Source: an uncultured virus (IMG/VR IMGVR_UViG_3300032167_006623)
Taxonomy: Duplodnaviria; Heunggongvirae; Uroviricota; Caudoviricetes
IMG/VR virus record: IMGVR_UViG_3300032167_006623
Length of the DNA stretch: 64,000 bases
Strand: one strand, 5' to 3'
Shown here piece by piece: positions 1,984 through 44,785 of the stretch (its first letter is position 1; every line of letters starts with the position of its first letter). The notes under the pieces are model-generated. The model was given only the letters and a program-made list of their open reading frames with translations. It was not told where the DNA came from and made no database searches. The position numbers and the translations under genes are program-made.

Positions 1984-2018
1984 GTATGTTGTGGACAACA
2001 TACGGGTTGGTGTTAAAA
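1984..2018 (+). repeat. hairpin+CGGG(G)TTG motif copy (divergent)
   Basis: GTATGTTGT-GG-ACAACATAC then GGGTTGGTGTTAAAA, upstream of the gene at 2084. Confidence 0.45.
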
Positions 2019-2083
2019 AATATAGTAAAAATACTAAATTTTATTATATATTTACATTAAATTGAAACAATTTAAAGGAGACA

Positions 2084-2374
2084 ATGATTATGAAAACATT
2101 CACTTACACAGATAAAGACGGCAGATTACAGCACGGTGAAATCTATGAAATAGATGCAAGTCATGCTCGATATGAAGATATCAACAAGCCCGGAGTCGTT
2201 CTTGCTCATCACTTTGAACTCGATATGATTCTCGCTTTCATCCTCTGGCTTGTAATCACAATCACATTCGGTGCTGAAATCAATCTCATCGCTTGGATGA
2301 TTGGTGGTTTCGTATACCACATCGTTAAGAACATCATCAAGCTTAAGAAGCACGGTACATCCAAGATGCACTAA
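2084..2374 (+). CDS. small membrane protein
   Basis: AAGGAG RBS; two hydrophobic segments. Confidence 0.7.
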   Translation: MIMKTFTYTDKDGRLQHGEIYEIDASHARYEDINKPGVVLAHHFELDMILAFILWLVITITFGAEINLIAWMIGGFVYHIVKNIIKLKKHGTSKMH

Positions 2375-2462
2375 GACTCTCACATTCGGTTAATTAAAAA
2401 ATTTTTACAAAATGTGTCAGCATTATGATGCTGTTGATTGATAAATCGCTATCGCTATCTGA

Positions 2463-2506
2463 AACAACACTTGACAGGATAACTGTCGGGTGTTGTTTTT
2501 TTTTTT
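2463..2506 (+). terminator. Rho-independent terminator
   Basis: AACAACACTTGACAG/CTGTCGGGTGTTGTT stem followed by a long T run, between convergent genes. Confidence 0.7.
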
Positions 2507-2516
2507 GAATAGCATA

Positions 2517-3011
2517 TCATTCTGTTGATTCTTCAGCTTCATTTTTACATAAATCAGCCCACGCATTCATCAATTCTTTTTTAGATTCAGCTACAAATTC
2601 TTCGTAAAGATTTGCTCTTTCTCTGAATATCTCAGCTCTTTCTTTGTATATTTCAGCTCTTTCTCTGAATATTTCGACTCTTTCTTTATATATCTCTATC
2701 AATTCATCATCCTTTTGACTTCTGTCAGCTGTTATACTTAACAAAAGCAAAAGATATAACAAAAGACTTGTTATCTGACTTGATAAAATAATTACGCTTT
2801 GCTCATCAGTCTTATCATATTTTTCATTATGCTCCGCATTTTTGAATATGCTGATAATTTCTTTATTGAATTTTTCTCTGTATTCTTCCTTGATGCATTT
2901 ATCAATGGCATAAGAAATGCTTTCTATATACTCTTCTTTGTCTTTATCTGAAAGACGCATTATCCAAAATAAATCGTCTTTATGTTTATGCTCGATATAC
3001 ATCATTATCAT
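2517..3011 (-). CDS. hypothetical protein with heptad repeats
   Basis: 164 aa; EIYKERV/EIFRERA repeats (21-nt unit). Confidence 0.6.
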   Translation of the reverse strand: MIMMYIEHKHKDDLFWIMRLSDKDKEEYIESISYAIDKCIKEEYREKFNKEIISIFKNAEHNEKYDKTDEQSVIILSSQITSLLLYLLLLLSITADRSQKDDELIEIYKERVEIFRERAEIYKERAEIFRERANLYEEFVAESKKELMNAWADLCKNEAEESTE

Positions 3012-3153
3012 CCTTTGTTTGCAACATTTTATCCAATTAACAACTCTTTAAATCCGGTTATCAACTCTTCACATGTGTCTATCAATTTGTCACGTTCCTT
3101 GCTGTTTTCAGCAGTTACATGCAATAATTCCAAAAAGCGTATCTTTCGAAAGT

Positions 3154-42104: not shown

Positions 42105-42198
42105 GAAATTACTGAGACATGCGAAGTGACAAAAACTATATTTATAATAAGGAGGAGCAAATTCTCAGTATTAACACTTCGGTTTGCGAATATGTGTC

Positions 42199-42363
42199 AT
42201 GAAGAAGATGACTTCTAAAGCAATGGTTACAGCTAACGGCGGTGGATACACTTACAGAAGTGGTGACTGGGTATTTTTCATTCCTGTCATCGGTTGGTTT
42301 GAAATGGGACGTGTGATAATCCAGAACGGCGTCAATAACGGCAAGGGCGGTAAGATTTTCTAA
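42199..42363 (+). CDS. double-glycine leader peptide precursor (bacteriocin/pheromone-like, 54 aa)
   Basis: Not in the track. MKKMTSKAMVTANGG|GYTYRSGDWVFFIPVIGWFEMGRVIIQNGVNNGKGGKIF, directly upstream of a C39 peptidase ABC transporter. Confidence 0.8.
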   Translation: MKKMTSKAMVTANGGGYTYRSGDWVFFIPVIGWFEMGRVIIQNGVNNGKGGKIF

Positions 42364-42439
42364 TTACCGTATGATTAACGGTGCGATGCAATGTATCGCA
42401 CCGTTTTTATATAACCAAATCACAACAAGGAGACAAAAT

Positions 42440-44596
42440 ATGTCTAAACATAAAATCAATCACATAAAACAACACGATGAAACAGACTGCGGTGCTGCCT
42501 GCATTGCAATGATTTGCCGATATTACGGTAAAGATATTACGATTCCATCTATACGTAAAATTATCTCTACGGACAAACAAGGCAGTAGTATTTACGGCAT
42601 AGTCACAGGCGTGACTAAGCTTGGCTTGATAGCTGATGGTCTGGAAGGCAATTTCGATGAACTGAAAGACTCTATCTCCAAGAACGAAATAGGCTTCCCT
42701 TTCATTGCAAGAATTCTGAACAAATATAATTACGAGCATTATATCGTTATTTACAGCTTTGAAAATAACACTTTCAAAATCTCCGACCCCGGAGAAGATA
42801 AAATCACTTATCTCAGTGCTGAAGAGTTCAAATCCCAGTGGCTTGGTAATATTATTACTTTTGAAAAATCTCCTGAATTTGATAAGATTTCTCATAAATC
42901 AAACAAAATCAATTTCATAAAGCATCTGCTTAAACAGAAAAAGCCAATGCTTGCTGTTCTGATAATTGCTTTGATAGTCACCGGCATAAATGTTTTCAAA
43001 TCATATATTTTCAAATATATAGTTGATGAGCTTACAGTCAAGGCTGAAAATATCATTTTCAGCGATATATTGACTATATCTCTGATAGGCATTGCTGCTT
43101 TTATCATAAGCTATTTTATATCTATTGCAAAGGACAAAATCCTTGCAAAAAGTATTTATCATATAAATACTGACATTACGAATGAATTTTGTGATTATTT
43201 CTTCAAAGTCAACCCTGCAGAGCTTATAAACTACAACTCAGGTGACTTAATATCAAGATTCTATGAGCTGGATACTATAAGAAACTTAATATCGACAATG
43301 GTAATCAGCGTTGTTTTCAGCGCACTTACAATGCTTTTCAGCTCAGTTTTCTTAATAAGCATATCGCCATATTTATTCATAGAAACCATTTTGCTTGCAC
43401 TCTCTTACATCTTGATAATATTCATCTACAAAAAACCCCTGAAGGAAATGAACAAGCTTGCCAAAGAAAAGCAGGCTCTCACAACATCGGCTATAAAAGA
43501 GTCAATACAGGGACTTAATACTGTTAAACAGTATAACAGTGAGGATTTTATCAAGAATAAAGTCAAAAAGACTCATAATGAGCTATTTGAGACGATAAGA
43601 CAAGCAACTATCGTAAATTCCAAGCAAAATATACTGATTTCAACTATATATGCTGTAAACACTATCTTATTCCTGCTTCTCGGAACTATCTTGTTTATAT
43701 ATGATATAATCTCAGTCGGCAGTCTTATTGCTTATTACAGCATGATTGGCTTCTTTATGGAGCCGTTGTCGCAATTATCATCGATGCAATCGGAAATACA
43801 GTCAGCCAAAATATCATCAGACAGACTGAACGATATTATCGAGCTTGAACAGGACAAAGACTCAGGTGAGATATTCTACGGCTTGGATGAAGCAATTTCT
43901 ATTGAAAATATTGATTTCCGATACGGTGCGAGAGAGCTCGTTCTTGAGAATTTAAGCCTGAAAATCAAGGCAGGCCAAAAAATAGCCTTAATCGGCGAAA
44001 GCGGATGCGGCAAAACGACTGTTGCAAGGCTGCTCACAGGTGATTATTGCCCTGAGAACGGCATTATCAAATTTGATGATAATGACCTGCAGTCTTTGAA
44101 CAAGACTTCAATCCGCAATAAAATCGCTTATATTGAACAGGAAACAATTCTGATAAACGACAGTATCAGAAATAATATCACTATGGGACGTGATATACCT
44201 GACGAAAATATCGAAAAGGCTATTAAGATATGTGCCTTAGACAGATTTATTGACTCTCTGCCAAATAAAATCGATACTGTTATAAATGAAAACGGCAAGA
44301 ATTTATCAGGCGGCCAGAGACAAAGAATATCTATTGCAAGAGCTCTTGTCAATAATCCCGATATTTTAATTATGGATGAAGCAACAAGCAATCTTGATAA
44401 CATAACAGAGAATGCCATTATGGACGCAATCAATAATCTGCCTGCGTCAACAACTGTTATCATTATTGCTCACAGATTGAAGACTATCAAGAACTGCGAT
44501 GTTATTCATATCATGAAACAAGGTAATATCATAGCTTCAGATACACATGAAAATTTAATACAGCATAACGAATGGTATCAGAATCAATGGATGTGA
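42440..44596 (+). CDS. peptidase-containing ABC transporter (C39 + TMD + NBD)
   Basis: QHDETDCGAAC, HYIV, GESGCGKT, LSGGQRQR, DEATSNLD, IAHRL; AAGGAG before ATG 42440. Confidence 0.95.
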   Translation: MSKHKINHIKQHDETDCGAACIAMICRYYGKDITIPSIRKIISTDKQGSSIYGIVTGVTKLGLIADGLEGNFDELKDSISKNEIGFPFIARILNKYNYEHYIVIYSFENNTFKISDPGEDKITYLSAEEFKSQWLGNIITFEKSPEFDKISHKSNKINFIKHLLKQKKPMLAVLIIALIVTGINVFKSYIFKYIVDELTVKAENIIFSDILTISLIGIAAFIISYFISIAKDKILAKSIYHINTDITNEFCDYFFKVNPAELINYNSGDLISRFYELDTIRNLISTMVISVVFSALTMLFSSVFLISISPYLFIETILLALSYILIIFIYKKPLKEMNKLAKEKQALTTSAIKESIQGLNTVKQYNSEDFIKNKVKKTHNELFETIRQATIVNSKQNILISTIYAVNTILFLLLGTILFIYDIISVGSLIAYYSMIGFFMEPLSQLSSMQSEIQSAKISSDRLNDIIELEQDKDSGEIFYGLDEAISIENIDFRYGARELVLENLSLKIKAGQKIALIGESGCGKTTVARLLTGDYCPENGIIKFDDNDLQSLNKTSIRNKIAYIEQETILINDSIRNNITMGRDIPDENIEKAIKICALDRFIDSLPNKIDTVINENGKNLSGGQRQRISIARALVNNPDILIMDEATSNLDNITENAIMDAINNLPASTTVIIIAHRLKTIKNCDVIHIMKQGNIIASDTHENLIQHNEWYQNQWM

Positions 44597-44619
44597 TAAA
44601 TCATGTAACTATAATGCGA

Positions 44620-44652
44620 TTTGCCCTTACGGGCAAACGGTTGTTATTTAAA
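44620..44652 (+). repeat. hairpin+CGGTTG motif copy (divergent)
   Basis: TTTGCCC-TTAC-GGGCAAA CGGTTGTTATTTAAA. Confidence 0.4.
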
Positions 44653-44749
44653 GAAGTGTCTGGTCAGCATTTCTTTTAAAAAATAGTCATAAAGGAAGAC
44701 AGCTCGTCCGCAGTCAGCGGTACGGGCTGTTTTTCTTTTTCTCTCCCCT

Positions 44750-44785
44750 TTTCGTCTTTACAGACCAAACGGGGTTATTATAAAA
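44750..44785 (+). repeat. hairpin+CGGGGTT motif copy
   Basis: GTC-TTTACA-GAC CAAA CGGGGTTATTATAAAA, after a terminator and before the gene at 44865. Confidence 0.7.

Follow-up and report, generated by a model that had tools for sequence, protein, structure and literature searches.

The question raised by this stretch of DNA is what is done by a small hairpin that recurs on its plus strand, each time followed by a CGG-containing box and a run of A residues. The stretch, referred to here as the window, is 64 000 nt long (IMG/VR record IMGVR_UViG_3300032167_006623, filed as an uncultured virus of the Caudoviricetes) and is part of a large conjugative element of the Gram-positive type, since its predicted proteins match a relaxase, a type IV coupling protein, a PcfJ-like protein, a ClpB-like ATPase and a fused β-β′ RNA polymerase. 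An earlier note, made from the sequence, had described up to six copies of the motif and suggested that they are promoters folded from single-stranded DNA for use by the element's own polymerase. All six, with hairpins beginning at 1984, 10705, 15719, 41553, 44620 and 44750, are recovered here; all are on the plus strand and all lie between open reading frames (ORFs). The feature is thus real, structured and strand-specific. We infer from its anatomy and surroundings that the motif is probably a promoter and, with somewhat less assurance, that it is element-specific, read by the element's own fused β-β′ polymerase and not by the σA holoenzyme of the host.

Copy 1 (1982–2028, +; 35.0 bits, E-value 5.8e-7) has an 8 bp hairpin at 1984–2003 with the loop TGGA; it reads GTATGTTG-tgga-CAACATAC and then GGGTTGGTGTTAAAAAA, with a box of the form GGGTTGG..TTAAAAAA, and lies 81 nt ahead of the start of a 96-amino-acid ORF (2084–2374). 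We note that a second, GC-richer hairpin, CAGCGAG-ttc-CTCGCTG, is present at 1966–1982 (+), between a promoter at 1911 and copy 1, such that the two stand in tandem. Copy 2 (10702–10748, +; 42.4 bits, E-value 4.5e-9) contains a 7 bp hairpin at 10705–10722 with the loop TTGC, reading TCTGTCT-ttgc-AGACAGA and then CGGGGTTGTTCATAAA, 68 nt ahead of an ORF at 10791–11174. Copy 3 (15716–15762, +; 36.6 bits), with a 7 bp hairpin at 15719–15736 and the loop TTAC, reads TTTGTCT-ttac-AGACAAA and then CGGGGTTGTCTATAAA, and is located 42 nt ahead of a small ORF (start at 15779) at the head of a long plus-strand operon that includes a NYN-like gene and RtcB. Copy 4 (41550–41595, +; 25.6 bits, E-value 2.7e-4) has a 7 bp hairpin at 41553–41569 with the three-base loop TTA, reading ACACGAT-tta-ATCGTGT and then CGGGATTGTTTTTAAAA, and precedes an ORF at 41610–41981 by 39–40 nt. 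Copy 5 (44617–44663, +; 28.5 bits) reads TTTGCCC-ttac-GGGCAAA and then CGGTTGTTATTTAAA, with its 7 bp hairpin at 44620–44637 and the loop TTAC; copy 6 (44748–44795, +; 21.8 bits, E-value 0.0032) has a bulged hairpin at about 44750–44769, with a GTCT-ttac-AGAC stem followed by CGGGGTTATTATAAAA.

The three copies that were called near-identical (2, 3 and 6) do share GTC..GAC, and the other three have unrelated stems. Folded as DNA, each window hairpin has 7–8 bp and a minimum free energy of −4.7 to −8.2 kcal/mol (z-scores of −2.2 to −3.1 against shuffled sequences), and each ends flush with CGG, with the TAAA run beyond. The pattern CGG, none to two G or A residues, TT, G or A, three to six bases of any kind and TAAA has seven matches on the plus strand, six of which are the motif copies, and one on the minus strand. 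The heptamer CGGGGTT by itself is not specific, because only three of its seven occurrences in the window (1.24 expected) belong to the motif.

For a description of the motif that extends beyond the window we made use of a 198.5 kb record, G001, which is also filed as viral, has inverted terminal repeats and encodes a polymerase 51 % identical to that of the window. A covariance model (R1) was built from 22 G001 sites and four window sites chosen for 7 bp stems and 4 nt loops; copies 4 and 6 were not among these seeds. When both window strands were searched with R1 with filters off, exactly the six copies were found, with E-values from 4.5e-9 to 0.0032, the next match having an E-value of 0.8. 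Aligning 68 matches to R1 gave 64 distinct rows, 26 of them seeds, from which the counts below are taken.

The whole signal is 47 nt long and includes an 18 nt hairpin with a fixed box of 16 bases behind it. Its 7 bp stem consists of standard pairs in 97.8 % of 445 cells, a rate that is partly by construction, as seeds were picked for perfect stems and the alignment was fitted to the model, and all 12 imperfect cells fall in the 38 non-seed rows. All seven pairs vary on both sides, in keeping with the earlier suggestion that structure and not sequence is conserved. The loop on the coding strand is T-T-G-C (also TTAC), corresponding to GCAA (GTAA) on the template strand. Immediately beyond the stem, C+1 is invariant (64 of 64 rows), and G+2 (57), G+3 (57) and T+6 (52) are strongly conserved; a T-rich stretch then leads to the A-run, in which A+14 is invariant and A+13 (46), A+15 (53) and A+16 (44) less so. 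The distance from C+1 to A+14 is gap-free in 61 of 64 rows, and the three exceptions, all of them weak (31.5, 22.3 and 17.4 bits), each show a one-column gap at +2. The motif does not resemble an intrinsic terminator, since the stem is followed by CGG and a box of mixed composition with no immediate T run, and no Rfam family matches it.

These features bear on the nucleic acid in which the hairpin forms. G-U pairs occupy only two of the 445 cells, in comparison with ten other mismatches, and because wobble pairs are no commoner than mismatches the hairpin is better explained as DNA than as RNA. DNA loops closed by G and A are unusually stable, and on the template strand 38 of the 64 matches have four-base loops of this kind (GCAA 28, GCTA 4, GTAA 3, GCGA 2, GCCA 1). 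Under a DNA energy model 46 of the 64 matches have their more stable hairpin on the template strand, with a mean margin of only 0.27 kcal/mol. An element acting within longer transcripts, be it a nuclease processing site, a 5′ stabilizer or a nut- or put-like antitermination site, nevertheless has some attractions: copies 2, 3 and 5 are each preceded by a gene on the same strand whose stop codon is 8–96 nt away, copy 1 forms part of a 5′ leader downstream of a consensus promoter, and among the products of the element are a NYN-like nuclease and an RtcB ligase. We regard such a role as improbable, in view of the rarity of G-U pairs, the presence of the stable G..A loops on the antisense strand, the lack of any Rfam match or of a conserved promoter upstream of the hairpin, the scarcity of σA-like matches (7 of 45 sites), and the strong terminators located directly upstream at no fewer than eight sites, which leave little RNA to process.

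The position of the motif relative to genes argues that it is a signal for transcription. As had been noted, five of the six window copies lie upstream of plus-strand genes, 39–96 nt from the start codons, the sixth (at 44620) being followed only by a terminator. Of the 45 sites of the window and G001 together, 22 have a start codon with a Shine–Dalgarno site 31–60 nt beyond C+1; the script used returned no distance for three of the 45 and misses ORFs of fewer than 40 amino acids. The earliest ribosome-binding sites are at +18 (G001 92468) and +21 (178514), and where no coding gene follows, a tRNA can take its place: the 5′ end of a G001 tRNA-Met is at +24 (L090:349), and in G002, a second relative described below, a tRNA heading a row of tRNAs starts at +27 (L105:1548). 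Given that ribosome-binding sites occur from +18 onwards and that the two tRNAs begin at +24 and +27, the signal must, on this layout, concern transcription and not translation, with the RNA starting between the hairpin and about +20. The invariant A+14 within the A-run is the obvious candidate, and the start is most likely at or just before the A-run.

Terminators point in the same direction. The earlier note had placed two copies directly behind terminators, and this holds, with one of the two being the weaker: an intrinsic terminator read from the sequence at 44700–44741 (+) is strong and adjoins copy 6, which lies directly behind it, and a terminator-like hairpin with a T run at 10676–10700 (+) adjoins copy 2. 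Terminators abut the hairpin at at least eight sites in all, namely window copies 2 and 6 and G001 61806, 82992, 90323, 100347, 100693 and 173197, such that transcription has to begin anew at these positions, with no space left for an upstream promoter. Copy 5 has no ORF between it and the terminator at 44700–44741, and the intervening 60 nt or so contain no start codon; this copy may drive a short non-coding RNA of about 90 nt, or may be a relic or part of a decayed cassette. A shared non-coding stretch (ACGGAG ... CCGTTCGACGGG) replaces the ribosome-binding site behind three other copies in G002 and G001 (L095:1455–1500, L107:366–411 and L089:6580–6628, all on the minus strand); it is possibly a small structured RNA under the control of the motif, and has no counterpart among Rfam families.

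Is the motif simply a promoter for the polymerase of the host? In such an arrangement the host core enzyme, with σA or with an element-encoded sigma-like factor, would use the loop (TTGC/TTTACA) as a −35 sequence and the A-run (TAAAA/TATAAA) as a −10, with the hairpin and CGG box forming a regulatory site in the spacer, as in the repressor-controlled promoters of p576. Copies 2, 3 and 6 do read TTTGCA or TTTACA, 16 nt, and CATAAA or TATAAA, the family-wide geometry is TTGCnn, 16 nt, TAAAAn, so that a 16 nt spacing is found throughout, and the p576 establishment genes use host-type promoters with a repeated operator (PMC6294495). A number of observations nonetheless make the host enzyme an unlikely reader. 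Stems that vary freely and yet remain paired cannot be accounted for by a repressor or sigma factor that recognizes a particular sequence, and a start 7 nt past the A-run would fall in the ribosome-binding site at several sites, for example G001 92468 and 178514. In sigma-70-type promoters the final T of the −10 is nearly invariant; here the last position has no preference for T (A 18, C 16, G 14 and T 16 of 64). Copies 2 and 3 are also absent from the sigma-70-type sites returned by a consensus scan.

Host-type promoters are indeed present in these elements, and are scarce at motif sites. A good σA-like promoter (defined as at least 10 of 12 consensus positions, or 9 of 12 with an extended TG) falls within a 227 nt frame at only 7 of 45 motif sites; for other gene starts preceded by a gap of 60 nt or more, the count is 33 of 104. 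In the window, consensus promoters stand at the heads of the transfer-gene blocks (9624 and 41499–41471, both minus strand) and before the polymerase gene, whose promoter at 33465–33493 (−) reads TTGACA, 17 nt, TGaTATAAT and lies behind a terminator; the G001 polymerase gene has the same arrangement, with a 12 of 12 match including the TG at 141427.

This polymerase is the leading candidate for the enzyme that would read the motif. Its gene (26789–33313, −) encodes a fused β-β′, or two-barrel, RNA polymerase of 2174 amino acids with Pfam matches to Rpb2 domain 6 and Rpb1 domain 2, and the metal-site motif DFDGD is invariant in an alignment with 23 relatives. Solved structures match it around the catalytic barrel only, and neither a structure nor any biochemistry for the family was found in the searchable literature; full-text term searches likewise returned no paper on a two-barrel polymerase of a conjugative plasmid or on its promoter. 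Its 28 relatives at 39–65 % identity are from metagenomes, with no close relative found among isolates, and in the species genomes searches with single-protein patterns gave no close relative, while an alignment-based search gave one locus. That locus, L001, is a 22.8 kb contig of an Oscillospiraceae metagenome-assembled genome (G002) and encodes a polymerase with 55 % identity to that of the window; the G001 polymerase is at locus L028.

The motif follows this polymerase into both relatives. It occurs dozens of times in G001 in the reverse orientation, as is evident in a listing of intergenic hairpins, and R1 gives 39 matches there, every one on the minus strand. One example reads ACGGGTGC-aag-GCACCCGT and then CGGGTTGGTTAAAAAA, which may be compared with CAACATAC and then GGGTTGGTGTTAAAAAA in window copy 1. 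In a crude ORF map 30 of the 39 matches are outside ORFs of at least 70 amino acids, and none is found in a 70 kb block of transfer genes. The plus strand of G001 has the gene order of the window: MobL, an intein-bearing ClpB, an intact coupling protein of 1209 amino acids, a topoisomerase, a ParM-like protein and the polymerase. The minus strand, by comparison, carries ten tRNA genes, which is all of them, together with genes for an SNF2 helicase, a D5-like primase-helicase, a Panacea antitoxin domain, SIR2, pentapeptide repeats, Lar, ToxN, Macro, NADAR, an RNA ligase, an RnlB antitoxin, a deaminase, PemK and UvrD. To judge by these predicted functions, the motif-headed genes have the make-up of an establishment or anti-defence set, and those in the window, as named by Pfam and NCBIfam, include a Panacea-domain protein, Fic, a NYN-like protein, RtcB and a bacteriocin-type ABC exporter. 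No match to a capsid or terminase family was found among 137 G001 ORFs of at least 130 amino acids (loci L085–L094), and this record, although filed as a complete virus, looks like a conjugative plasmid, possibly a linear one.

In G002 there are 15 matches at E-values of 0.1 or less on seven contigs, all on one strand within each contig, and these contigs encode homologues of the motif-headed genes of G001 with 28–71 % amino acid identity. The strand bias that the earlier note had asked to be sought in relatives is therefore seen in both. Among 151 genomes of the family to which G002 belongs, searched at an E-value of 1e-3 or less, G002 has seven matches, G011 has one and G061 has one weak match; G002 alone among the 151 has the polymerase, and it alone has multiple matches. 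Many copies are thus found in three of three elements with a polymerase of the close clade, and the expected co-occurrence with the polymerase is observed. Thirty other loci (564 kb), including those around polymerases of about 30 % identity, gave no match at an E-value of 1 or less, and in 163 kb of unrelated control loci the only matches were at 0.19 or above.

Several observations weigh against a promoter dedicated to the element's polymerase. The link between motif and polymerase is a correlation over three related elements, and G003–G006, which are complete or near-complete and encode polymerases with about 30 % identity, have no motif match; nor does G499, with a partial and distant polymerase homologue. 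In G003 (111 kb) no analogous family of intergenic hairpins with a box could be seen by eye. G011 has two tandem copies (L110:1397–1547, +) ahead of a homologue of the window gene at 25199–25465, and neither the polymerase nor MobL was found in it; the copies may be a stray or incompletely binned piece or reflect an assembly gap, as the genome may be incomplete. Nine of the 39 G001 matches overlap ORFs of the crude map, mostly opposite-strand or over-extended calls, and the match at 323 (21.1 bits) is inside a probably real gene and may be false. As described above, the loop and A-run are spaced like a weak −35/−10 pair (TTGCnn, 16 nt, TAAAAn). Two window copies also adjoin consensus host promoters, such that the motif is not the sole route of expression there: a σA-type promoter at 1911–1940 (+; 12 of 12 with TG) is about 70 nt upstream of copy 1, and another at 44790–44818 (+; TTGATA, 17 nt, TATAAT, with TG) is just downstream of copy 6. 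Finally, the extrusion of a 7 bp AT-rich hairpin from duplex DNA is energetically demanding.

The closest parallel to the motif is provided by the early promoters of phage N4, the comparison that had been made in the earlier note, and the anatomy fits. In N4 it is the template strand that folds into the hairpin, any base is tolerated at the non-conserved stem positions provided that pairing is kept, and a sheared G:A pair stabilizes the loop (PMC4496689). The motif shares with the N4 promoters P1–P3 a small hairpin of 5–7 bp directly upstream of the start (the probable start in the present case), a free but paired stem, and conserved bases at the junction of stem and single strand. Its loop may likewise be stabilized by G:A on the template strand, and its reader would likewise be encoded by the element, being the virion RNA polymerase in N4 and the two-barrel enzyme here. 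The differences are also substantial. The N4 enzyme is a T7-like single-subunit polymerase, whereas that of the window is a fused β-β′ protein with DFDGD; the N4 loop has three bases and the end of the hairpin is 4 nt upstream of the start, whereas here the loop is mostly 4 nt and a 13 nt box precedes the invariant A; and there are three such promoters on the phage but dozens on the conjugative plasmids. By analogy, then, the motif would work like an N4 promoter without belonging to that family. We think it an even chance that the two-barrel polymerase of large MobL plasmids of gut Clostridia recognizes template-strand hairpin promoters; a class of enzyme unrelated to that of N4 would then have arrived at the same strategy by convergence.

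The reading that we favour, an element-specific promoter, suggests a two-tier cascade as the most likely scheme. Consensus promoters would allow the host polymerase to express the transfer genes together with the gene of the element polymerase, and the latter enzyme would then transcribe, from the opposite strand, a dispersed set of tRNAs and of accessory, establishment or anti-defence genes. We infer that the strand that folds is probably the template strand, within double-stranded, supercoiled DNA, as in the N4 early promoters, and that the exact start is to be sought near A+14. In a bolder extension, the polymerase protein might accompany the DNA during mating. The two-tier logic is reminiscent of T7-type cascades, with the polymerase gene behind a consensus host promoter and the regulon behind a compact promoter of fixed geometry. 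In T7 the phage polymerase is produced by that of the host and then recognizes promoters of its own, which are duplex and lack a hairpin; the enzyme family is thus different, and only here is there a hairpin. A plasmid-encoded, single-chain fusion of the two large polymerase subunits has a parallel in Orf6 of the yeast killer plasmid pGKL2, described as an Rpb2::Rpb1 fusion (PMC2919709). The killer plasmids are eukaryotic and cytoplasmic, do not conjugate and have a far smaller polymerase, and the common ground in this comparison is the two-barrel core. These cytoplasmic linear plasmids express their own genes from a short conserved upstream sequence.

The orientation of the genes bears on the earlier proposal that the promoters are read on the transferred strand. 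In the window the MobL relaxase gene (60869–62983, −; identified by Pfam) sets the orientation of the transfer genes, which is opposite to that of the motif-headed genes: the motif copies are on the plus strand, and relaxase, coupling protein and polymerase on the minus strand, with the whole arrangement reversed in G001. A similar layout is reported for pLS20, in which many establishment operons lie opposite the conjugation operon, each headed by a shared regulatory sequence, EGeRS1, which lacks a constitutive σA promoter, and the relaxase nicks the non-template strand of the establishment genes (PMC8708921). By analogy, the strand entering the recipient here would carry the motif as printed, and could not template these mRNAs.

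EGeRS1 of pLS20 and EGeRS2 of p576 are in other respects the nearest relatives by layout, since both belong to MobL-type plasmids of Bacillus with the same relaxase family and a shared sequence heading small operons on the opposite strand. EGeRS1, however, is 420–750 bp long with many inverted repeats (PMC8708921), as compared with 47 nt here, and EGeRS2 consists of a host promoter with TTATCCC operators for a repressor (PMC6294495). These two papers report no plasmid polymerase, whereas the present element encodes its own.

A signal acting on the transferred single strand in the recipient, either as a promoter or as a priming site for the complementary strand like ssi, sso or the phage G4 origins, would account for the location of all matches on one strand within each element (in G002, within each contig), would form its hairpin without supercoiling, and is compatible with the near absence of G-U pairs, which points to DNA over RNA; in addition, Frpo-type promoters occur in the leading regions of F and ColIb-P9 (PMC8708921). 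We consider this use unlikely, whether for transcription or for priming. The non-template strand is the one transferred in pLS20, and by that geometry the entering strand bears the TTGC loops and not the G..A loops that look selected. Priming would leave unexplained both the fixed distance to ribosome-binding sites and tRNA 5′ ends and the absence of the motif from the 70 kb transfer block of G001. The likeness to Frpo that had been suggested also fails in its details: Frpo and ssi of F and ColIb-P9 are long foldbacks that recreate a duplex −35/−10 for the host holoenzyme on the transferred strand, while the motif is an 18 nt hairpin with a 7 bp stem of free sequence, in which there are no promoter hexamers and no such duplex fold.

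The last alternative, also raised in the earlier note, is a site for recombination, nicking or cassette capture, comparable with the attC sites of integrons in that structure is kept and sequence is not. The variable stems with conserved flanks, the placement between genes that all run one way and the presence of three copies in the cargo of a mobile intron could all be taken to suggest it. This intron, a group II intron at 38792–46614 (−), splits the coupling-protein gene into two pieces (46597–49515 and 37871–38869, both on the minus strand by Pfam), and comparison with the uninterrupted 1209-amino-acid G001 homologue places the insertion exactly between M967 and S968. Rfam matches identify its domains D1–D4 (46423–46562) and D5/6 (38792–38876), and the domain IV cargo of about 7.3 kb (approximately 38883–46174) contains a PcfJ-like gene, the bacteriocin-type ABC exporter and, as had been proposed, copies 4–6 (hairpins at 41553, 44620 and 44750), which are antisense to the intron; no match to a reverse transcriptase family was found in it. 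The intron ends (46175–46590 and 38792–38882) are common to contigs of other runs and the interiors differ, in a comparison of four runs over 26600–46590, and a megablast search of a plasmid collection gave no match to 40000–47000.

Capture at the motif is nevertheless very improbable. Among the joints and loose ends listed for these four runs none falls at copies 4–6, and no integrase or recombinase family is matched among the 57 window ORFs of at least 100 amino acids or the 137 G001 ORFs. The hairpin is also merely 18 nt long with a conserved loop, and a recombination site would not be expected to keep a fixed spacing to ribosome-binding sites and tRNA genes.

If the motif is indeed an element-specific promoter, it would be the first defined for the plasmid-borne family of two-barrel RNA polymerases, and would indicate that conjugative plasmids, and not phages alone, run their own transcription systems. 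Such plasmids would have a tier of transcription, serving establishment and anti-defence genes and their own tRNAs, that is independent of host sigma factors. It would also account for the way in which MobL-type plasmids activate dispersed establishment and anti-defence genes in the absence of host-type promoters, which the pLS20 papers leave unanswered in the case of EGeRS1. The 47 nt signal could be used as a regulon marker in metagenomic plasmids, and possibly as an orthogonal expression module for Clostridia.

For recognition of the motif in searches the hairpin is needed, as the box alone is too weak. An exact search of viral contigs with the box gave 18 loci, none of which has a hairpin ahead of it, and these were set aside as chance matches; a loose box pattern was no more frequent in G001 and G002 than a reversed control. 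Counts of k-mers behind all hairpins were too noisy to recover even the motif of the window itself, and the best candidates among general IUPAC patterns cover only 5 of the 64 known sites, with fewer than 14 fixed letters. An exact search of viral contigs with one frequent G001 hairpin returned G001 only. Two other identities were considered and rejected: a relaxase nick site, given the unconserved stems and the dozens of copies, and a repeat of the REP (repetitive extragenic palindromic) or MITE (miniature inverted-repeat transposable element) type, given that the copies have structure and not stem sequence in common.

More distant polymerase homologues are present on plasmids of other bacteria. 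On plasmid pGKT2 of Gordonia sp. KTR9 (L120, 54963–99873) the gene order is kept, with a MobL relaxase, an AAA ATPase, a coupling protein and a polymerase homologue, the last having 27 % identity and being annotated as hypothetical; SSB and MgsA-like genes lie on the other strand. A search of these 45 kb for repeated motifs with stems of at least 5 bp found none, a filter that mini-hairpins of 2–3 bp would escape. Shorter polymerase homologues are found on Staphylococcus and Lactococcus plasmids.

The window contains a second group II intron at 36279–37949 (−), with Rfam matches to D1–D4 (36703–36831) and D5/6 (36279–36366) and an ORF of 334 amino acids that belongs to no family. In one 40 kb contig (run X7) and in one RNA-library contig, 36278 is connected to 37950 through 54 letters of other sequence, so that a form lacking 36279–37949 exists as DNA. 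Two RNA-library runs, as contigs, contain 7 % of the sampled words. The ClpB-like AAA+ ATPase (51995–56071, −; 1358 amino acids) is interrupted by homing endonuclease domains of the intein type (Hom_end and LAGLIDADG_3), and the same intein arrangement is seen in the 1369-amino-acid ClpB of G001.

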